Assembly (NCBI GenBank): GCA_963732225.1
Contig: CAVSYR010000004.1
Coordinates: 82,710-146,709 of the forward strand
Length of the DNA: 64,000 nt
Direction of reading: 5' to 3'
Origin: an uncultured Solirubrobacterales bacterium
GTDB taxonomy: Bacteria > Actinomycetota > Thermoleophilia > Solirubrobacterales > 70-9
A program made the translations under genes and the position numbers. The notes under the pieces are model-generated. The model ran no database searches and had not been told where the DNA came from. It was given only the letters and a program-made list of their open reading frames with translations. Below, in pieces: positions 1 to 21,048 of this stretch; position 1 is the first letter of the stretch, and each line of letters starts with the position of its first letter.

Positions 1-1740
1 GCGTTCTTCGGTGTCATGGAGGACGAGGTAGACGGCGAAAAGGGAGCCGAAGGGGTTGTCGCCCTGCGCGGCGAGGAACATCGAGCCCTCGGCGGCCTTC
101 GGCAAAAGCGGCGTGGAGAGGGTCACTTCGCCGATCCGCGAGGCATCCGGGCATTGCACGGGGTCATTGGTGCCGAGCCCGATCTGCTGGGAGCTGCAGC
201 TGCGCAGGCCGTCGGCGAAGGAGGGCGAGAAGCTCATCCCCTGGGGCAGGGTGACGTTGACGCGCTTGACCGGCGGGGTCGAGAGCGCGTCGGGATCTTC
301 GTTTTGGGCGACGCGGAGGTGGACGTCGAGGCCGGTGGGGGTGTTGGCCTGATGGCCGGTCGGTTCGACTTCGATGTCGGGTTCGAAGCGGGGGCGCTCG
401 CAGTCGGTCGTCTGCCCCGGAAGCGTGTAGGCGACATCGGGCCCGTAGAGCCCCGGGTGCTGCCATGAATCGTAGTTGCGGAAGCGGAGCTGGTGGTCAA
501 CACCGCACTGGGACGGGAGGGTGAGGAACGGCTTGCGGGCCGCGTCGGTCGCGCATTCTTCGTCGGTGAGGGCGTTTTCGCCGAAGGTGAAATAGTTGAA
601 TCGGAAGCAGCGCTCGGAGTCGTGTGAGTGCTCGGCCGGGACCCCCCAGATCGTCAACCTCTGATTGAAGACCGGGGCGGACTCGTTGATGTCGGAGACC
701 TTGGTGGTGATGCCGTAGTTGCTGGCTGGGTCGAGGAAGGCTTTGATGTGGACGGGGTTGCCGGCCAAGGCGAAGCCGAGGTCGGTGACCACCCCGCGGG
801 GGTGGCTGAGGTTGAAGACGCCGGTTGAAAAGCCCAGTTTGTTGCCTGCGGCGAGAGCAATATTGAGGTCGATGCGCCCGACCTGGGAGGAAGGGGGGCA
901 GAGGTTGAGCGTGAAGGCGGCCTGGCCGCACTCGCCGACCGCGGTCGGGGCGCCGATGAAGCCCTGGGGAAGATCGACCTGGAGATCGCGGATGTGCTCG
1001 ACGGGAGTCTCGGTGAGGACCGTGCCTGCTTGCGTCAGACTCTCAGTTCCCAACGGTTCGGAGGTGAGATCGAAGGGGACGGTGAGCAGGTCGGGGTGGG
1101 AGCCCGATTCGCGAACGGCGGTGACACCGTCTTCTTCAAAGAAATCGGGGACGAAGCTTTCGGGGAGGATGCCAAACACAGTGGGCGCGAGGCTGGTTTC
1201 GGTGGACTCAGTGGTGCAGGCTGCGGCCCCGGGGGCGCAGCCCTCTGAGGCAGGGGCTTCGCGGGCGCCGCCGCCGATCAGTTCGGCAGTGGTGGTGCGG
1301 ATCGCGAATTTCGGCGTCGCGGCTGCTTTGACGGTGAACTCGATGAGGCGATTGACGACGTGGCGTTTGAGCGGGTTGGTCGTCGTGCAGACGAGGATTG
1401 AGTCGCCCACCGAGCCGGGGCAGGACCATTTGACGTTATGTTCGTAATTGGTCATGTCGGCGTAAAATTCGACGCTTTCGCGGGTCAAGCCAGGCGGAAG
1501 GCTGATCTTCAGGGTGAGCGGAGCCGATGTGGGTTCGCCGCTGAGATTGGAGACGTCGAACCAGTACTGACCGAGACCGCCGGGCTGGATGGTGGTGGGG
1601 TGGTGATGAATGTCGACCGTGAGCAGGGGCGCGGCGCTGGCCGAGGCGACCCCGAGCCAGAGGAGGAGCGGGCAGGTGAAGAGGAGGGCGAGGCGCCTCA
1701 GGCTTCGAACGTTGGCGCAAGCGGGCGAAGTGGTTGACAT
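1..1740 (-). CDS. Secreted protein, third family of the surface cassette (copy 1). The 5' end is in the window and the 3' end runs off the left edge.
   Basis: Absent from the ORF track because it has no stop inside the window. Reading the minus strand from ATG at 1740 gives 580 sense codons down to position 1 (MSTTSPACANVRSLRRLALLFTCPLLLWLGVASASAAPLLTVDIHH...). The N-terminus looks like a signal peptide. It is a clear paralog of the gene at 13263-16104: ESGSHPDLLTVPF vs QAGSHPFGFATTV; RLTIWGVPAEHSHDSERC vs RITIWGNPSDPAHDAERGLC; FGSLFAVYLVLHD vs SLLALYVVIKN. It starts 48 nt after the stop of the giant gene. Confidence 0.75.
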   Translation of the reverse strand, partial: MSTTSPACANVRSLRRLALLFTCPLLLWLGVASASAAPLLTVDIHHHPTTIQPGGLGQYWFDVSNLSGEPTSAPLTLKISLPPGLTRESVEFYADMTNYEHNVKWSCPGSVGDSILVCTTTNPLKRHVVNRLIEFTVKAAATPKFAIRTTTAELIGGGAREAPASEGCAPGAAACTTESTETSLAPTVFGILPESFVPDFFEEDGVTAVRESGSHPDLLTVPFDLTSEPLGTESLTQAGTVLTETPVEHIRDLQVDLPQGFIGAPTAVGECGQAAFTLNLCPPSSQVGRIDLNIALAAGNKLGFSTGVFNLSHPRGVVTDLGFALAGNPVHIKAFLDPASNYGITTKVSDINESAPVFNQRLTIWGVPAEHSHDSERCFRFNYFTFGENALTDEECATDAARKPFLTLPSQCGVDHQLRFRNYDSWQHPGLYGPDVAYTLPGQTTDCERPRFEPDIEVEPTGHQANTPTGLDVHLRVAQNEDPDALSTPPVKRVNVTLPQGMSFSPSFADGLRSCSSQQIGLGTNDPVQCPDASRIGEVTLSTPLLPKAAEGSMFLAAQGDNPFGSLFAVYLVLHDTEER

Positions 1741-1787
1741 CTGAGCGGTCTCCAGATCTTTGGTCGGCGGTGCGGGGCGGGCGGCGT

Positions 1788-4700
1788 TCATCGATGCCCT
1801 GCCCGGTGATGGCCGCGCTTGCCGCAACGGCGGTGGTGCCTACCCCTGCGCTTGCATCTTTTCGGCGTGATGGCCGGCGGATTGCCCGGCCCGCGGAAGG
1901 TGGAGGTCCCCGGGGGCGCTTCCTCGGGGGTGCCGTTCGGGGTTCCCTGGCAGACCTCGAGCGGACACGGCTTGGGCTTGGGCGGGAAAGCGATGCCGCC
2001 GCCGATGCGCGCATCATAGAGGCGGGCGTAGGCGTCGGGGGCGTCTTCGGTGTACTGGGCGGGGGCGCTGAAGAAGAGGTCGCGGCCCGAGGGGCTGATG
2101 CCGGCGACCTCGGGGGCGCCAGCGCCATTGGAGAAGGCGGTCCATTGGGTGAGGCCGTCGGTGACGAGGAGCAACCGCCCATCACGCCACTCGTAGACAT
2201 CGGTGCCGGCGAGTGGGTCCTTGCCAGGCCCGGGCGTGTTCTGGTCGGCGGGAAGCAGCGGGGTAGGCGTCGTAAAGGCAACATCACCCTGATCGGTGAT
2301 TACAGTGATGTTGCGAGCGCCACGATTTGTGCTGCCGGGGAACGTGGCACGCGGCGTAGTGCCAGGCTCGGGGCAAGAGATGCAGACCAGGGAGCGATGG
2401 CGGTCGTCATAGCGGTAGGACTGTGTGGCGCCGCCGTTTACCTTGCCGCCCTGCGGATTGAGGAGCGGACTGGCGGAGCGGAAGGTGAGGACAGCGCCGT
2501 CGGGGGTCAGATCGGCGGGTTCACCCAGGCTCCCGATAGCGAAACCCGATCCGACGTAGGCGAGGGCGCTGGTGGCGACATCCACCCGGTAGATACCCCT
2601 GGTCGCTGCACCCGGGAGCAGCGGCTTGGCACTTTCGAAATAGACGCGGGAACCGTCATCTGAGACACGGATTTCGAGATTCGGTTCTTGGGTGACCACC
2701 ACGTCGACGTCGAATCCCGAAAGCACGCAGGTCACGCATTCGAGGGTTTGGTCGGAGGTGTCATAACGATAGACGTCTCCGTCGGGACCATTTCCGGTTC
2801 CCGAGCTGCAAGCAGCAGGATTTCGGTCGGCGGGATCGAGACGGGTCTGCGTCCAGAAAAAGGCGGCGCCGGGGGTTGACTTGATGAAGCCGGCGCTGCA
2901 CTGGGGCCCGGAGATCGGCGGCCCTGAGATGAGCTTCGATTCTTCGGCCTCGAGGTCACGCGCGTAGAGCCCGGTGGGCCCGGTGCAGTTGTTCGCGCGA
3001 CTGTTGAAGTAGAGAAACTTCCCGTCGGCCGACAGGGAGTGGGCCTGGGCCCTCTCAGCGAAGGCCTCGTAATCCCCTCCGCCGTGTCGAACCTTCACCC
3101 CGCAACTCGCCGGTTCGCCGCCGGGAAGGAGGCTGAGGAGATGGGGTGGTGAGGCGCTGATGTCATAGAGGTTTGGGAGGCTCGCGGCGGTGGGATAGGC
3201 AGGATCGACGACCCCGTTATCCTCGAATCCACCGATCACCGTTCGCGCGTCATCAGAGGCAAGCAGGGCGGGTTGGGAGGGGTCCAAGTTAAGTGCCGCG
3301 GCACTCCCCATAGGGAACTGCGCGAGCGGCGTAGGCGTGCGGCCGGGCCCAAGGCGCCAGATGGTCCCTTTCGTGTTGCCATCGAGTTGGTCGCCGTTAA
3401 AGGCGAGGACCGTCGAAAGCGAGGGATCCGAGAGGGGCGTCAGCCAGGTAAGCCCGGTCAACTGGTCACGCACCGGAGTGATGAGTTCGGTCTGCCAACC
3501 AGATTCGGGGTGCTCGCCGGGGGGCCGCTGGGCGAAGTAGAGGCCCCAGAAATTCCCGGCGTTGGAGAGGGGGGTGCCGCCGGAGACGCGATAGATGGCT
3601 CGGTCGCCGTCGTCGGAGAGGCCGAGGGTGCCGCCGACGAGGATGGGATTGCCGCCGGATTCGCCGAGGCTGACCTGCTCGTAGGCGCGGTCGGAGCCAG
3701 GCGGCCCCGAAAACCGCCCATGGCTGAGGGGGGCGTCGGAGGCTCGCGTCGTGAAGGTGACGTCGTTGCCGAGCGCGGCGCCGGCGACGTTGCCGTTGTC
3801 GGCGACGATGCGGTAGTGATAGGTGGTGCCAGGCGCCAGGCCGGTGAGCTTGCGGGCGACAAGAACAGTGTGGCTGAGGTCGCCGCCCTGCCTCTGGGTC
3901 GTCACTTTGAAGTTGGTCGGTAACCCCACATTATTTTTAGGTGGCGTCGCCCCGTCGCCAACGTCGAGCTGGGGCACGTCGGTACCGGCAAGGCTCCCCA
4001 CGAAGGTGACTTGGTAGGCACCCGGCTCGCCGCTGACCTGGACGTTTCCGGAGCCGATCGAAGGGAGGGCTTCGAGGGCCTGCGCCAGTTTTGCGGCGGA
4101 CTCGTCGAAGGACAGGTCGGGAGTGGTCTGGGCGCCAAAGGAGACCCTGAACTGGCCGCTGGCCGCATCGAAGGCGATCAACTGCAGCTCATTGGTGTCT
4201 ATCTGGGTGGGGGAAGTGGCGGTGGCGGTGGCAAAGCCGCTGGCTTCGTATGCGGCAACGGTGACGTATTCGAAGTGGTAGCTCGTCGGCTGGCCCTGAG
4301 GATCGACGCGACCGTTCAACCAGGCGGTGGTCGCGGTCCTTTCGGGGGCGCCGACGGTCTCGACTTCGGCCGGGCCGGTCGTCCTGATCGAGGCCTGGCG
4401 CGACACCGTGCCTTCGAGGTTCGCCGCGGTGAGCAAGTAGCGATAGGTCGTATTGGGAGTCAGGCCATTCAGAACGATGCTGACAGCATGCGGCGATTCG
4501 TCGGTGGGGATCTGGTCAAAGCTCGGATCGCAGGAGACGGTGCCGCCTGAGGACAAATCGGAAAACCCTGCAATCTGGAACGCCCGCTCGGTCACGTACT
4601 GAAGGTGACAGGCGGTAAGGGTCGAGCCTTTCGGATTGACGGACGCATGCACCGTCGCAGTGTCGTTGCCGACGGCGGTGGGCGGCGAGAGGGCTACCCT

Positions 4701-6133: not shown

Positions 6134-6918
6134 CTAGCCGGTCACCGCCCAGGTTCCGCTGCCGACATGGAAGCCCCCTTCGGCTTCTGAAACCAGGAGG
6201 ATGGCGCCGGAGACGCTCGCCCCGAGTCCGAAAGTGGCCGGGTCCTGGACCTGGACGAGGGTCGCGCCGGCAAGGGCCCCCGCGTAGACGCAGAGGTAGC
6301 CGGGATCGGCCTCGGGGTTGGCGGCACCCGCAGTCCCGGCGTGTTCTTCATTTTCGCAGTGTTCGTTGGTGGGGTCGTTGATGATCGTGTGACTTGCTTC
6401 GGTGATCGGAGCGGCAAGCGGGATGTCGAAGGAGAGCGGAAGACCCGCCGTCACCCCACCGTTGTAGCGCCAGACGCCGGTCTCGGTCGCCTTCGAGGGA
6501 AGGGTGCCTCCCGCGGTCCAAGGTTCGCCTTCGGGACCCGGGGTGCCAGCTTCACCGTTGCAGACGTATTTCTTGGTGGCCGGTTCGCCGGCGACTTCGA
6601 CGCTGGAGCCGCCTTCGCCACAGTTGGCGCCAGGTTCCTCGTTAGCCACCACCACCGACTTGCCGTTGGTGCCGGGGCTGCCGTTTGCACCGGGTGCCCC
6701 GTCTTTGCCGTTGGTGCCGTTAGTACCGGGTCACCAGCAGCCCCAGCCGGCCCAGTCCCCTGGAAGCTCTTCGCGATCGCCTTGACTTCCTTCTTCTGCT
6801 TGCCGTTGAGGCCGGAGGCCGCGATGGCGCTTCCCCCTACGGCGAGGACGATGGCAATAACTCCAAGCACCAAGCCTGCGGTGCCGAAACGGTCTTTAAA
6901 GCGGCGGTAGAGAGACAT
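6134..6918 (-). pseudogene. Membrane-anchored collagen-like (Gly-X-Y) protein with a globular C-terminal domain, cassette copy 1. One frame change lies inside the Gly-X-Y tract.
   Basis: ORF 6451-6918 gives the N-terminus (MSLYRRFKDRFGTAGLVLGVIAIVLAVGGSAIAASGLNGKQKKEVKAIAKSFQGTGPAGAAGDP...). ORF 6134-6655 gives the rest (...GKSVVVANEEPGANCGEGG...GSGTWAVTG*). Together they are collinear with the intact paralog at 20251-21048. One missing base near 6725-6729 (GACCCGGTACT, expected CCCGGGT) would restore GDPGTNGTNGKDGAPGANGSPGTNGKS. AGGAGG lies upstream of the ATG. Confidence 0.8.
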
Positions 6919-13262: not shown

Positions 13263-16104
13263 TCAGGGTCGTGCCGTACGGTCCTGGCGGCGCTTGTGCT
13301 TGCAGCCCGTCGGCTTCAGTGGCGCCCGATAGTTCGAGACCTTGCCGTTGTGGCCTTTGAGCTTGACCGTGGCGAGGTGCTTGCCCTTGCAGATGTTGGT
13401 GCGAGTTTTCGAGCAGGCCCTTCGCGGCTCCGTCGAAGACGAAATCGGCGGAGGTGACCGGGGCGTCGGGGACGACTTCGAAGGTGTTGCGGATGCCGCC
13501 GCCCTTGACCGAGTCGACGCGGCCGACGAGGGCGACGTTGATCTCTTGGTGGTGGAGGGCGGCGACCAGGTCGGGGAGCTTGTGTTCGGAGGAGCGCAGG
13601 TAGATCGGGCCTTCGAGCGGCCCTTCGAGGATCGGCGTGGTGGCCGAGACGTGGCCGTAGACCGAGGCGGCCGGGCACTTTTCGCCGGGGACCGCGCCTT
13701 CGCGGAACTGCACCCGGGTGCAGACGGTGCCGATGTGGGCGTTGTCGAGGAACTCGGAGCGAGGGCAGGGCGACCTGGGCGAAGGCGACGCCGGCTTCGC
13801 CGAAGCCATTCATCGCCAGATGGGCGCTGAGGCTCGGGTTGCCGCCGCGCTTGGTCGAGCCCTTGAGGCGTCAAGGTGAGCTTGGGCTTGAAGGGCAGGG
13901 CGGCGCAGTCGGCGGCCTGGAAGCGGGTCGAGACGACGAGCGGGTTGTCGTCGGCGCCGAGACGAAGTCAAGGCCCGAGCCGAGCACCGTGGAGGCGGTC
14001 GAGGTCGGTTCGCAGCTGGTCGGGTTGAAGGTGAATTCGGGGCGGTCGGTGTAGGCGCGGATGTCGCGCAGGTGGATCGGGATGCCCTTGATGATGTGGG
14101 GGATCGGGTCCGAGCCGGTCGAGTCGAGGAAGACTTCGCCGGTTTCGGGGTTGACGTCGATCGCCAAGCGGACGACGACGGTGCCGATGTCGAAGGGGCC
14201 GACCACGCCGGCGGTGATCGCGACGAGGCGAGACCGGGTGACCGTGGTAGGGGCCGGCGAGGTAGATCTTGCCGGGGGCGTAGGCGAGCGATGGCCCGAC
14301 GCCGGCGCCGACGAGGGTGCGGCCGACCTGGGAGGCCGCCGGGCAGCTGGGGCTGTCGAGCTCTTCCTGGCCGCCGTGCGGTCCGGTCCTCGCCGTTGGC
14401 CGGCGGCGATCGCCGCATCGGAGCAGAAGGGGATGCCGGCGAGCTTGCCGAGCAGGCCCGGGGGCAGCTTGATCGAGAAGTGGGTGATCTCCTGTTCGGA
14501 GTCGGTGCGGGTGAGGCGGACGTTGAAGGGGCGAGAAGCGCCCGGCGGCGTTTGTTGAGGGTGCCGGCGTCGAGGTGCGGGTGGAAGGGCGGCAGGCCGC
14601 CGCTCGGGCAGGGGCCGGCGTCGGGGCCGGAGATGATCTGGAAGGCGGAGGTGGTGGTGATCGGCGGGCCGCCCGACCACGGGGTGAGCTCGGCGCTGGC
14701 GGTGTAGGTGCCGCAGCCGGGCGGGCTGCCAGCGGTGATCGGGCGCCCTCGCGGAAGTGGAGGCGGAAGTGGCAGAAGGGGAGCTGCGGCAGGTCGTCGG
14801 CGATGGTGGTGAGCTGGCCGGTCACCGGGTCGGGTTCGACCTTGAGCGCCTGCTTGATGACGATGCCCAGGGTCGGGTTCTTGATCACGACGTAGAGGGC
14901 GAGGAGGCTGTCCGAGTTGGTTTTCGTAGGGCTTGGCGATGAAGAGCGAGCCGTCGACGTTTTCTTCGAGCAGCGGGGTTTCGACTTCGACGGTGCCGAT
15001 CTTGGAGGCGTCGGGGCAGCCGGCGCCGGGGGCCGAGAAGGCGCTCTCGCGGGCGAGGTCGGCTTCGCTGCAGACCTCGAGGCCTTCGGCCAGGGAGGGG
15101 TTGGTGGAGAAGCCCTCGGGCAGGGTGACGACGGCCTTCTTGATGTCGGAGTCGGCGATCCCGGTGGGGTTGGTGAGGCCCTCGTCGTCGACGTCGAGGG
15201 AGAAGTCGAGGCCGGTGGGGCTGTTGGCGGCCTTGGTGGTGGGTTGGGCGGAGATCGTCGGCCCGAAGCCGAGTTTGGCGCAACCGCTGAAGCCGAGCGG
15301 GGTGACGGCGACCCCGGACGCTTCGGCGCCGGTGTTCCAGGCGCGGGCGGCAAATTCGCTGGTCAGGGCGCCGGTGCAGCTGCGGGGCGCGGTGAGGAAC
15401 GGCTGTTTGAGCTGCTGCACGGGGCAGGTTGAGCCGTGCAGTTCCGCGCAGAGGCCGCGCTCGGCGTCGTGGGCGGGGTCGGAGGGATTGCCCCAAATCG
15501 TGATTCGGGAGCCGAAGAACTGGGTGATCTGAGAGGTGGCGTCGACGCTGGCGAGGAGCCGATATGGCGGATCGGGGCTGACGCGTACGTCGATGATGAC
15601 CGGGACGGCGACGACGAAGAAGCCGAGTCGGGCGGCGACCCCGGGAGGCGGGGGGAGGTTGTAGACGGCGGAGGTGTTGGCGTATCCCAGCGTGGGAGGC
15701 TCGGGTACGAAGTTGAGGTCGACGGCGGCGATGCCAACCGCGGTGGGGTCGGGGCAAGACCTTTCTCTTTCCTGGGATACCGTGGCGATGAAGGTAGCGG
15801 TAGGGCAGCGCGGAACCGCCGTCGGATCGCCGACCAAGCCCGGTGGCGAGGTTGCGGTGAGGTCCCTGAGTTCGCCTTCGGGAAGGAAATTGCCCGGTTT
15901 GGCTTCGAAGGTATTGAAGTTCACCGTGGTGGCGAAGCCGAAGGGATGGGAGCCGGCTTGCATGAGGGGATTGCCGTCGGGGCCCGGGAAGCTGACTTCG
16001 AGGCTCTTGAAGCCGAAGCTGGCCTGCGCCGCGCCCGAAAAACAGGTGGCGCCGGCCAGCGCGAGGAGAATTATCATGGTCAAAGCTGAGATGAATCGCC
16101 TCAT
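13263..16104 (-). pseudogene. Third-family secreted protein, cassette copy 2. Intact for its first ~1.2 kb, then broken by about ten frame changes.
   Basis: ATG at 16104 overlaps the giant-gene stop (ATGA 16101-16104). It begins MRRFISALTMIILLALAGATCFSGAAQASFGFKSLEVSF... and stays in one frame to about 14925 (...LFIAKPYENQ). After that, recognisable segments alternate among all three frames: SLLALYVVIKNPTLGIVIKQALKVEPDPVTGQL; ITAGSPPGCGTYTASAELTPWSGGPPITTTSAFQI; FNVRLTRTDSEQEITHFSIKLPPGLLGKLAGIPFC; EELDSPSCPAASQVGRTLVGAGVGPSLAYAPGKIYLAGPY; LVAITAGVVGPFDIGTVVVRLAIDVNPETGEVFLDS...; ...NICKGKHLATVKLKGHNGKVSNYRAPLKPTGCKHKRRQDRTARP*. Confidence 0.75.
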
Positions 16105-19100
16105 CGGGCGGCCCTCCGCTTGTCGTTTGCTCGCCGATGGCGATTGTGGGCGGCTCGCCGGTGCCGCTTGGCGACGCAGCGGCTCTTGCGGCGGACCTTG
16201 CCTTTGGGGCAGCTGGTCCTGGGGCCTTCGAGGACGTTGCCGGCCCCTTCGAAGCTGGCCGAGGCCGGGGTGGGGTCGTTGGGTGGGGCGGGGACGCCCT
16301 GGCAGGCTTCGCCTTCGCAGGCCGCGGGCGGGCTGGGTTCGGGTGGGAAGCCGCCGTCGATGCGGGCGTCGTAGATGTCGATCAGGCCGTCGTCTTGGGG
16401 CAGGAGGCTCGACTGGGTCTTGAAGAAGACGTCTGAGCCGTCGGTGGAGGCGTCGACGAAGGTGGAGTCGGCGGGGCTGCGGCCGGAGGAGATCAGGCTG
16501 AGGCAGCCGGCGGCGGCAGGGCTGTAGAGGTCCGCGCCCTTTTCGTGGCACTGCGCGGCGCCCGCGGCGCGCTGCCACTCGTAAACGTCGAGGGCGCCGT
16601 TGGTGTCGCGGAGGATCAGCGGGTCGGCGCTTTCGAAGAAGAGGCGGCGACCGTCGGTCGAGAGGACACTGGTGGGGTGGGTGCCGTTGAGCCAGCCGGG
16701 GATGGTGGCGGCGGTCCAATCAGTGACACTGCACGCTTTAGATGAGCAGAAGTTCTGCCCCATCGGGCGGGCGCCGTTGGGGTTACATGAAAGGCAGCGC
16801 AGCTTCGCTTCGCCGGCGTCATAGAGGTAGAGCTCGGTGTCGGGTTGGCCGCTGGCGGCGTCGTGGTTATCGTATTCGGTGAGCTGGGCGCGGGAGGCGA
16901 AGGCGAGGTCGGCGCCGCCGGGGCTGACGCGAGCGGAGAGGTGGCTCGGCGACTGATAGTTGATCAGGTCGTCGGGGGCCGTGGTGGCGATGAAGGCAAG
17001 GCCGCCACCCGGGCCGGCCTGGTGGAGGTAGAGGTTGGGCCGGCCGGCGACCGGAGAGCGGTGTTCGGCATTTTCGCCGGTGAGAGCTTCCGTGGAGAGG
17101 AAGTAGACGCGGGTGGTGTCCTCGGAGGCGCCGAGCAGGTTGAGCGCCTTGGGGGCGATCAGGGTGCTGGCGCCGGCTTCGCCGGCGAGGGCTCTGGCGA
17201 GGTCGAATTCGTAGAGGGCTTCCGTTCCGGCGCCTTCGGAGGCGGTGTAGATCGCGGTCGAGCCGTCGGGGGCGGCGGTGCGGAAGTGGGCGGCTGCCGA
17301 TACCGCGAGGGTGCAGGCGCGGGCCGCTTCGGTGCATTTGCCGGCGAGGACTTTGCTCTGCCCCTGGCCGGCGTTGACGCGAACGTAGAGGATGCCGGAG
17401 CCGGAGCCGTTGGCCCCTTCGGTCGGCCCTTCGGTCCAGTAGACGCGGGAGCCATCGGTGGAGAGGGCGTGGTAGACGGTATCTGCGCGTTGAGAGGCGG
17501 ATTGCGTGCCCTGGGTGACACCCTCCCAGCATTTACTGACGCTCGGGGTGCCGTCGGGGAGGATGCAGAGGAGGCGGAGTTTGCCGCCGTTGGAGAGGTA
17601 GAGCTGTCTGGTGCAGCCTTCCTGCCCCTGTTCCACTTTGGTGCAGGGCACCGCGTCGGGGGTGAGGGCGCCGTTGGCGTAGAAGACGGCGTGGGTGCCA
17701 TCGGGGGTGAGGTCCTGGGGGATCGGGAAGAACCATTCGGGATCGACTTTTTTGGGGACGGCGGTGGTGATCGCTTCATAGCTGCCCGCATCGGGGCCGC
17801 AGTTGTCGCGCCGGTAGATGTTGGGGTAGCCGGGAAGCGCTTTGGGGGCGAGCAGCGGTTCGGTCTCGGTCAGGACCAGGGCCGAGCAGAGGTCGCTGGA
17901 GAAGCGCCTGTACTGATCTTCGACCGCATAGTGGACGTTGTAGAAGGTGGGGCCTTCGCGGGGGGTGGAGATCGATTCGCTCTGCCAGCCCGCCGCGGCG
18001 CGGTGGGCGAGGTACTGGGCGGTGAAGGGAGCCGATTCGGGATCGGCGAAGGCGCGGTAGGAGGAGTAGGTGAGGCTCTGCCCGTCGGCAGCCGCCTGCT
18101 CGAGGCCGGTGCTGTCGGACAGGACGGAGATGATGTCGCCGCCGCCCTTCTGGACCGGGGAGACCATCTCGTAGGCACGGCAGTCGGGCAGGGCGGCGGA
18201 GGCGGCGGTGCGGAGGGCCTGGTTGGGGCAGGCGGTGAAGGCTTCGGCGGGGGGCGAGTAGGTGGAGATCGTGTGCTCGGAGCTGAATTTCGTGACGAAA
18301 GGGTCGGAGGCGAGGAGGCGGTAGTGGTAGGTGGTGCCCGGGGATAGGGAGCTGAGCTGGGCGGCGGCGGCGCTGGGGGCTTCGCCGGAGCCGAAGTCGA
18401 TCGGTTCCGCAGGGGCGGGAATGTCGCCGGCGTGGTCGAAGCCATGGCCGGGGCCGGAGGCCTGCAGGTCTGCCTGGTAGGTCGCGTCGTCGACGTATTG
18501 GAAGTAGCCGGTGGCGGGGATCGTCAGCGGGTTCACTTCGGCGTGGAGAGTGGCGCTGTCGGTGTTGACCGCGGTGGCGAAGGTTGCGTCGATTTCAAGC
18601 GGCGCCTTGGTCGTGAAGGGAGCTCCCTCGGGGCCGGTGGAGATATGGCCTTCGGAGTCTTCGGCGATGGCGCGGTAGTGGTAGGCGGTTTCGGGTGCGA
18701 GGCATTCGTTGCCCGGTTCTTTCAGTTCGGTGGCGGGGAGGGGGCAGCCGATCAGGTTGCTGAGAGCGTGGGTTTCGAAGTCCGAGCCCGCCGCGGCGCC
18801 GGTGGTTTCGCGGGTCGCGGGGCTGGAGAAGCCCTCGCCGTTGTGTTCGAAGTCGGCCGCGTCGACGTACTGAAAGCGGTAGACGGTGGCCTTGCCCTCT
18901 GGGTTGACCTGGGTGTTGACGGTGGCCTTGGTGTTGCCGAGCGCGGTGGCCTTGGTGATGCCGGGATAGCCGAGGACAAGGGGGCCTGGCGGGGGGATCG
19001 GGATATGGAGGATGGAGCCGAGCTTGCTTCCGTCGGTGCTCTCGTAGCTTTCAAGCGCAAAGACGTCGCCGCCGGGATCGGAGTAGGGGGCGAGGGAGCG

Positions 19101-20250: not shown

Positions 20251-21048
20251 CTAACCGGTCACCGCCCAGGTGCCCTTGAGAGTCGCTTCCGGGAGGGCGA
20301 GGATGTAGAGGACCGCGCCGGCGGTGGAGGCACCGGCGTCATTGGCGGCCGTTCCGGCCTTGAAAACACTGTTGACTTCGCCCCCTGCTCCCCCCCCGCT
20401 GATCGCGGCGGCATAGATGCAGAGGTGGCCGGATTTGGCTTTCGGATTCGTCGACTTGCCGGGACAGTCGGATCCCGCAGCGCCTTCGTAGTCGACCGGG
20501 TTGACGTGGACATTGGCCGCGGGAATGTCCGCCGCCAGCGCAATCGGGAAGGAGATCGGCAGGTAGAATTCAAAAGCGGGTGCTTCCACGGCCGGTCCGA
20601 GCGCCCAGGCCCCGGTCTCGGTCGAACCCGAGGGAAGGGTGCCCCCGGCGGCCCAAGGCGAGCCGGCTTCGCCGTTGCAGACTTCGACGCCGGAGCCGGC
20701 GTCTTCGACCTTGACTTCGGCGCCGCCACGCTGTTCGCATTCGGGTTCGCCGGTTTCGATTTCTTCCACCGCGACCGATTTGCCGTCGGCGCCGTCGTCA
20801 CCCTTTTGACCGGGCAGGCCCTGGGCTCCGTCCTTGCCGTTGGTACCGTTCGTGCCGTTGGTGCCAGCGGCGCCGGGCGCACCGGGCTTGCCGGCAAAGC
20901 TCTTGGCGATCGCCTTGACTTCCTTCTTCTGGGTGCCGTTGAGCTTCGCACCGGCAGCAAAGGCAGTCCCTCCCAGCGCTGCAATCAGTGCGATCACCCC
21001 CAGGACGACACCTGCGGTACCAAAGCGCTCGTGGAATCGTTTGTACAT
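20251..21048 (-). CDS. Membrane-anchored collagen-like (Gly-X-Y) protein with a globular C-terminal domain (cassette copy 2, intact)
   Basis: GAGGAG lies 8 nt upstream of the ATG. N-terminal anchor FGTAGVVLGVIALIAALGGTAFAAG. Gly-X-Y run GKPGAPGAAGTNGTNGTNGKDGAQGLPGQKGDDGADG. The ~170-aa non-collagen C-terminal domain ends GTWAVTG*. The overall layout resembles BclA-type collagen-like surface proteins (architecture only). Confidence 0.9.
   Translation of the reverse strand: MYKRFHERFGTAGVVLGVIALIAALGGTAFAAGAKLNGTQKKEVKAIAKSFAGKPGAPGAAGTNGTNGTNGKDGAQGLPGQKGDDGADGKSVAVEEIETGEPECEQRGGAEVKVEDAGSGVEVCNGEAGSPWAAGGTLPSGSTETGAWALGPAVEAPAFEFYLPISFPIALAADIPAANVHVNPVDYEGAAGSDCPGKSTNPKAKSGHLCIYAAAISGGGAGGEVNSVFKAGTAANDAGASTAGAVLYILALPEATLKGTWAVTG

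Follow-up and report, generated by a model that had tools for sequence, protein, structure and literature searches.

The large exported proteins of an uncultured Solirubrobacterales bacterium carry a C-terminal tail rich in Lys, Arg and His, which is real, conserved and previously undescribed. It was found in a 64,000-nt stretch of DNA (GCA_963732225.1, contig CAVSYR010000004.1, positions 82,710–146,709 of the forward strand), referred to as the window, on two giant proteins, P0001 and P0002, and on a family of adjacent proteins, T3, all of which are encoded in gene cassettes. The tail is portable across unrelated exported families. It is most likely a variant of known charge-based anchoring rather than part of a new sorting pathway, and on balance it probably works as a non-covalent electrostatic tether, which would hold very acidic Sec-exported proteins on anionic polymers of the envelope or the matrix.

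The genome from which the window originates (G000) is 3.0 Mb in size with 67% G+C, is assembled in 7 contigs and is 93.4% complete. A search of the literature found nothing on these Solirubrobacterales proteins.

Organization and conservation of the basic tail

Both giants contain a Sec-type signal peptide, NHL repeats, Fn3-like domains, a PD40/TolB-like propeller and the tail module, as assigned from translation and Pfam. The last 332 residues of P0001 were modelled with AlphaFold2 with a mean predicted local distance difference test score (pLDDT) of 83, and the best Foldseek matches of the model are the propellers of TolB and of S9 peptidases. The C-terminal region of the giants begins with the propeller end YDAR-x-GG(F/Y)P, which is followed by ~8 Pro-rich residues, the motif CxGExCQG, a linker with the consensus PNDPTPASSxFxGAGN, 6–10 variable residues, a basic loop with the consensus CxKGKVRRKGRC and finally a Lys/Arg/His-rich string ending in RANxxRRAGR.

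Alignment A1 shows no variation in the two Cys residues of the first motif, C31 and C36, and in P0001 this segment is modelled as a short hairpin with a pLDDT of ~65. The linker is predicted to be disordered (pLDDT <50 at model residues 275–290), and in alignment A2 its positions P, D, T, P, S, G, G and N either do not vary or are conserved to at least 90%. For the basic loop the prediction is a cationic β-hairpin stapled by a disulfide, with model strands at residues 301–304 and 307–310 and pLDDT values of 73–87, while the last 15 residues of P0001 have a pLDDT below 50. The tail of P0002 is built in the same way, with CPLEVC at 1950–1967, the basic loop CKRRGRHHRRC at 1824–1856 and the terminal residues HRAGHR. 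The two tails are collinear in alignment A1 at 36% identity, far beyond chance, and P0002 is matched with an E-value of 8e-22 by the profile of giant C-termini described below. This bears out an earlier note on this DNA, made from the sequence alone, in which the giants were described as ending in collinear modules; the three C-termini quoted there are present in the sequence exactly as given.

The tail differs sharply in charge from the protein that carries it. The median net charge of the giant tail is +17 against −66 for the body, which has a pI of 4.5, and the corresponding values for T3 are +8 and −16. Among the 119 giant homologs listed, the loop between the two tail Cys residues has 10 residues in 97 and 14 residues in 14, and the number of Cys residues after the GAGN sequence is two in 113 proteins, zero in five and four in one. 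The number of tail Cys residues is thus even (0, 2 or 4) in all 119 giants, as it is in all 29 members of a choice-of-anchor-D/collagen family described below, which fits disulfide pairs formed outside the cytoplasm and argues for a translocated tail. The loop is optional, since several paralogs in the genome have pure Lys-rich tails. Tail length ranges over 25–60 residues, and Lys can stand for Arg or Arg for Lys; together with the optional loop, this indicates that selection acts mainly on charge.

The T3 proteins, of ~950 residues, end in GGKKGLxVNSxNLC-x~28-C followed by 10–18 basic residues. AlphaFold2 models them (pLDDT 88.8) as a rod of several all-β domains, with the last 13 residues disordered. 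The best fold matches are the C-terminal domains of LPXTG-anchored Antigen I/II, pilins and integrin legs, and the T3 body appears from its model to be adhesin-like. The earlier note had treated the Cys pair as one feature common to the giants and T3. This did not hold, as the pair of the giants encloses a 10-residue loop within the tail, whereas that of T3 is spaced by ~28 residues, which belong to the last folded domain.

A third carrier is encoded elsewhere in the genome, outside any giant/T3 cassette and with no coupled downstream gene. It has three choice-of-anchor D domains, matching NF012200 at 132 bits against a cut-off of 45, and a collagen triple helix, and its C-terminus reads ...KKSGGKQHRACKASKKKRGAKARCAATKH. 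A tail of the type ...KGKPGKSKKSSC-x10-12-C-basic loop ends 24 of 29 homologs of this family. Choice-of-anchor domains are named after the varied C-terminal anchors that they precede, and the basic tail therefore occupies the position of an anchor.

A profile of the last ~100 residues of the giants detects 13 giant paralogs in the genome with E-values from 1e-19 to 8e-45. Of 36 species of the genus, 34 are matched by the same profile (1–57 matches per genome), whereas 17 genomes that belong to the same family but to other genera have no match. Database relatives number more than 2100 for the giants and more than 4300 for T3, and the tail is present in essentially all of the 120 listed for each. 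The Lys-rich runs are no composition artefact in a genome with this G+C content.

In related genera the C-terminus takes a different form. Giants of genus g16 have, in place of the floppy tail, a ~100-residue Arg/Lys-rich, β-looking C-terminal stretch, and a similar end is found on T3 homologs of genus g24, while T3 of g16 keeps the Cys residues and the basic tail. Ends of this type were seen on L003, L006 and L009 (genome G169) and on L032, L036 and L039 (genome G179), and show an alternation of basic and hydrophobic residues. Pfam gave no match in the one such end that was scanned, and a tblastn search with the basic stretch against the present genome returned only Arg-rich off-frame noise. 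The occurrence of basic C-termini of differing form in related genera suggests that a cationic C-terminus is a conserved requirement.

Enrichment on secreted proteins, proposed as a check in the earlier note, was also observed. Strongly basic ends were found on 20 of 616 signal-peptide-like open reading frames (ORFs) and on 12 of 1889 others (odds ratio ~5, p ~5e-6) as classified by a crude, home-made gene and signal-peptide caller. The 12 others include ribosomal protein L2, further ends that look nucleic-acid-binding, short ORFs that look off-frame and, owing to a missed start, one giant.

A 338-residue exported protein encoded outside the window (G000:C5:667270–668286, minus strand) likewise came up in the search for basic stretches. 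Its Lys-rich end looks, by eye, like a PASTA-like domain and is distinct from the tail described here.

Gene cassettes and the dual-coded ending

The gene order within the cassettes, collagen-like protein, giant and T3, is conserved, and the neighbours of the giants and T3 in the cassettes are the collagen-like protein, an unassigned family of ~260 residues and an HtaA-like protein (Table 1). The tail had been proposed to occur on all cassette proteins. It is present on the giants and T3, but four other proteins of the cassette region are without it, which makes the proposal too broad. Both collagen-like proteins encoded by the first genes end in GTWAVTG (20251–20262 and 6134–6145, minus strand) with no basic tail, and none is found on a 367-residue Fn3-like protein ending in INGEKI, a ~284-residue protein ending in CGVKE or the HtaA-like protein of 445 residues, whose C-terminus is TAQTQ. 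The cassettes contain no gene for a peptidase, a sortase-like protein or a processing enzyme, and the co-occurring processing enzyme that had been envisaged is accordingly not among the cassette genes. Three YkuD L,D-transpeptidases are encoded in the genome, none of them adjoining the cassettes of the window.

The T3 copy in the second cassette has its Cys pair at ~13389–13391 and 13302–13304, followed by the basic tail KHKRRQDRTARP (13266–13301). Its reading frame changes at least seven times. With the intact paralog P0123 as the query, tblastn yields pieces in frames −2, −3, −2, −1, −3, −2 and −3, each with 50–79% identity to intact paralogs. This copy is either a (recent) pseudogene or lies in a locally error-rich part of the assembly. 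All 16 other T3 paralogs checked in the genome are single open frames, and 15 of these 16 end in the Cys pair and basic tail. The T3 gene of the first cassette runs out of the window, with its C-terminus at G000:C4:81129, and its product ends in ...NLCKAPARADVKFTSQSNRFLRLRPLMQTSCKGRAKSKVKSKRAPQGAP.

The terminal residues common to the giants and T3 are explained at the level of DNA. The giants' end, (K)RRA(G/A)R, is encoded by AAG CGG AGG GCN NNN CGA TGA. In P0001 the GGAGG within this sequence (16113–16117) is a Shine-Dalgarno sequence positioned 8 nt upstream of the start codon of T3, and the ATG of T3 (16102–16104) overlaps the stop codon of the giant as ATGA. Of 12 giants in the genome, 11 have this layout, as does one giant of another species (L001); the P0002 gene closes with CGA TGA and has an ATGA overlap with the next T3 gene (1788–1793, minus strand). 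In this arrangement the giant and T3 are translationally coupled. The gene that follows T3 has its ribosome-binding site (aagcgcagggcccacTAAcccATG) within the T3 end itself, KRRAH or KRRAR. The layout also explains why the last residue of the giant is Arg, Gly or Lys, which have codons with A in the third position. Since RRAxR is dual-coded with the Shine-Dalgarno sequence and the start codon, the resemblance between the ends of the giants and T3 is no evidence for a peptide signal. Dual coding explains this ending but not the tail as a whole. It also calls for caution in motif hunting, because in coupled operons the conservation of a C-terminus can reflect a constraint on the nucleotides and not a peptide signal.

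Table 1. Positions of the cassette genes and of the tail elements. Numbers refer to the window, except for the last row, which refers to the genome.
Feature	Position	Strand	Basis
Giant P0001, 1343 residues	16101..20132	−	translation
First Cys pair of the P0001 tail, CEGEAC, after YDAR-x-GGFP	16302..16319	−	alignment A1, AlphaFold2
Linker of P0001, PNDPTPASASFEGAGN	16236..16283	−	alignment A2, AlphaFold2
Basic two-Cys loop of P0001, CPKGKVRRKSRC	16176..16211	−	homolog comparison, AlphaFold2
Polybasic end of P0001, VAKRHRRAAHNRHRRANDKRRAAR, disordered	16104..16175	−	charge, AlphaFold2
Dual-coded end of P0001, AAG CGG AGG GCC GCC CGA TGA	16101..16121	−	read in DNA
Giant P0002, 1415 residues, divergent paralog of P0001	1788..6035	−	translation
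T3 gene, second cassette, frame-broken	13263..16104	−	three-frame reading, tblastn
T3 gene, first cassette, 5' part	1..1790	−	ATG overlaps the P0002 stop
Collagen-like protein, first gene of its cassette, N-terminally membrane-anchored, acidic head	20251..21048	−	translation, Pfam Collagen match, ORF list
Collagen-like counterpart in the first cassette, read in two frames	~6134–6918	−	ORF list
Third carrier, three choice-of-anchor D domains and collagen triple helix	G000:C2:1116081–1117748	−	outside the window

Possible functions of the tail

The tail fits no known sorting signal, as stated in the earlier note, and the absence of a hydrophobic segment, an LPXTG or a PEP motif reported there agrees with counts on the tail sequences. 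The motif L[PA]xT[GASN] occurs in the last 120 residues of none of 122 giants, one of 120 T3 proteins and none of 29 collagen-family proteins, and no PEP motif is found in the tails. Within the last 60 residues, V, L, I, F, M, W and A together make up at most 8–9 positions of any 15 (median 6), and there is no transmembrane segment. When the whole proteins and the tail by itself were scanned with NCBIfam, no C-terminal sorting domain was matched. Pfam gave no match on the tails even at E-values up to 1–10, the bodies matching only NHL, PD40 and Fn3-like domains. Folded wall-binding domains (LysM, SLH, GW, CWB1/2 and WxL) and the C-terminal domain of the type IX secretion system likewise have no Pfam match in the C-terminal region. 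What the proteins do possess is the attribute of polybasic retention tails, a disordered, strongly cationic C-terminus on proteins that bear a signal peptide.

A role of the tail as a stop-transfer element retained in the cytoplasm was considered and ruled out, as a hydrophobic segment is lacking and the Cys residues of the tail invariably come in pairs.

The genome, within its 93.4% completeness, shows no match to sortase (PF04203), and only 6 of 36 species of the genus have a sortase, as opposed to 17 of 24 genomes of the order's other genera. The genome encodes two LCP ligases, which show that wall glycopolymers are attached; PMT-type glycosyltransferases are also present, but are unspecific.

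Surface attachment by charge is an acknowledged class in monoderms (PMC12445088), and ScpH from Streptococcus sanguinis has a Lys-rich unfolded C-terminal tail in place of LPXTG, which binds extracellular DNA (bioRxiv 10.64898/2026.05.25.726231). In the mechanism proposed for the tail described here, the giants and T3 would be exported by Sec through ordinary N-terminal signal peptides, and the Cys pairs would be oxidised outside the cell. In most giants oxidation would staple the small cationic β-hairpin, to be followed by the floppy Lys/Arg/His-rich string. The resulting appendage, with a charge of +8 to +17, would be carried on the flexible Pro/Thr/Ser linker at the end of the very acidic body. 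It may bind polyanions, for example extracellular DNA, anionic lipids or glycopolymers linked to the wall, and would in this way keep the proteins on the cell in a lineage mostly without sortase. The idea that the polycationic tail binds anionic polymers was put forward in the earlier note and remains the best reading, in which we infer the binding, the polyanion that is bound and the retention on the cell through this binding.

Several observations weigh against such a tether. Sortase-bearing species of the genus still carry the tails, and there is no clean complementarity between the two. No teichoic acid polymerase of the TagF type (PF04464) was found in the genome. The linker is more conserved than a passive spacer requires, which hints at an additional function as a site of glycosylation, cleavage or binding. 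Furthermore, the counts come from paralogs and close species and are not independent, and the enrichment on exported proteins was obtained with the crude caller mentioned above.

If the tail is an anchor, it would explain how a variable protein coat is built in these abundant, uncultured soil bacteria, where thousands of large uncharacterised exported proteins share such ends. It would also provide a simple sequence rule for the prediction of the surface proteome and a compact tag of 25–45 residues for the display of proteins on polyanionic surfaces.

The tail might alternatively be the business end of these proteins, directed at polyanions outside the cell (extracellular DNA, matrix polysaccharide, clay or humic surfaces), and would then decorate the matrix or stick the cell to its substrate. 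This is regarded as rather unlikely, since no other means by which the giants and T3 could be retained on the cell is recognisable, although that task could fall to the N-terminally membrane-anchored collagen-like protein of the cassette as the true anchor. ScpH, with its filament scaffolded by extracellular DNA, is a precedent for such a function, and the lack of a classical teichoic acid polymerase is in line with it. The chemistry is common to this reading and to that of a tether on the cell's own polymers, and the two are inseparable by sequence alone.

Specific docking of the tail on an operon partner, for example on the acidic head of the collagen-like stalk, would yield a membrane-anchored surface complex. 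Such a complex would be in line with the conserved gene order, the coupling of the giant with T3 and the acidity of the collagen-like head. It is nevertheless improbable, because the free drift of the tail in sequence and length fits a specific interface poorly, and because the tail is also found on the choice-of-anchor-D/collagen protein outside such cassettes and on T3 copies in cassettes that have no recognisable collagen-like gene.

The earlier note had raised the possibility of an undescribed sorting signal. In its most explicit form, an enzyme would recognise the linker or the Cys loop, remove the basic tail and attach or release the protein, so that the module of the giants would be a helix-less sorting signal, which machinery in the mostly sortase-less Solirubrobacterales reads, cuts or couples to the wall. 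Were this true, it would constitute a new class beside LPXTG and PEP-CTERM. The module does occupy the position of tripartite sorting signals, and its linker is strikingly conserved for a segment with predicted disorder. This linker, however, is confined to the giants and is lacking in T3 and the collagen family, no transmembrane helix is available to keep the substrate at the membrane, the cassettes have no peptidase and the NCBIfam models of sorting signals do not match. Nothing suggests that the tail is read by an enzyme. Its length and sequence vary freely between Lys-rich and Arg-rich forms, and the RRAxR ending is a DNA-level feature; a sorting signal is an improbable explanation.

The remaining proposal, that the tail has no role in the protein and is a by-product of selection for a purine-rich, unstructured Shine-Dalgarno region in the mRNA before a coupled gene, is very improbable and largely refuted for the whole tail: it draws on the dual coding of the last six codons of the giants with GGAGG and the T3 ATGA start, on the ribosome-binding site in the T3 end and on the ~40% A of Lys-rich tails against ~20% in the gene body, but it covers ~18 nt and not 75–180, Arg-rich tails lack the A enrichment, the tail is kept where no coupled gene lies downstream, on T3 copies and on the collagen-family gene, and the paired Cys residues and the confident hairpin are features of the protein, which leaves it valid only for the terminal (K)RRAxR.

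Comparison with known anchoring systems

The tripartite signals (LPXTG/sortase, PEP-CTERM/exosortase, GlyGly-CTERM, MYXO-CTERM and PGF-CTERM) are likewise located at the extreme C-terminus of exported surface proteins. Like the tail described here, they are portable across unrelated families and have a basic cluster at the end. In contrast to these signals, neither a signature motif nor a hydrophobic helix nor a partner enzyme was found for the tail, which is for this reason not a member of this group.

The LysM, SLH, GW/SH3_8, CWB2 and WxL modules likely perform the same job, non-covalent retention on polymers of the envelope. They are folded repeat domains with defined ligands, while the tail is a low-complexity segment of 25–60 residues with at most one small hairpin and no match in Pfam.

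The loop of the giants bears a resemblance to PF08793 (2C_adapt) of large DNA viruses, where the pattern C-P-x-G-K-V-R...G-R-C-[VI] is nearly identical. The profile-profile probability between the giant-tail loop and 2C_adapt-type loops is 82%, in a comparison that is circular. The 2C_adapt loops differ in length, and the viral ones are intracellular; the 2C_adapt model has no match to the tail of the window at E-values up to 10 and scores below the cut-off even on a viral-type match. The resemblance may be taken as a lead at the level of the sequence pattern, with no relationship implied. A profile of the tail only (A4, 38 positions) was also searched against 1.84 billion representative sequences, a search that is underpowered and gives no census of carrier families, and returned five matches at E ≤ 0.001. 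Two of these are of the Solirubrobacterales type, the giant P0067 and a 75-residue fragment with two tandem loops. The other three (P0364, P0366 and P0367) contain tandem two-Cys loop repeats, and at least one of them is of viral type. Tandem CPEGKVRNPxTGRC(I/V) repeats were observed in this search, in one case on a protein kinase of the large-DNA-virus type with a sub-threshold match to 2C_adapt.

The mycobacterial HBHA has a disordered C-terminus rich in Lys, Ala and Pro, which binds sulfated or otherwise anionic polymers and host glycosaminoglycans. HBHA has no signal peptide, and its tail is made of methylated Lys repeats. The likeness is that of an actinobacterial surface protein with a Lys-rich disordered C-terminus, while the tail described here is found on Sec-exported proteins and contains Cys pairs and much Arg and His.

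ScpH provides a further parallel. Both tails are unfolded polybasic C-termini of large Sec-exported proteins on the surface of Gram-positive organisms, and both stand where relatives have a covalent anchor; polyanion binding was shown for ScpH and would be the corresponding inference here. ScpH has no sequence relation to the present proteins and works together with FIVAR domains in proven binding of extracellular DNA, whereas the tail of the Solirubrobacterales proteins adds an optional two-Cys basic hairpin and a conserved Pro/Thr/Ser linker.

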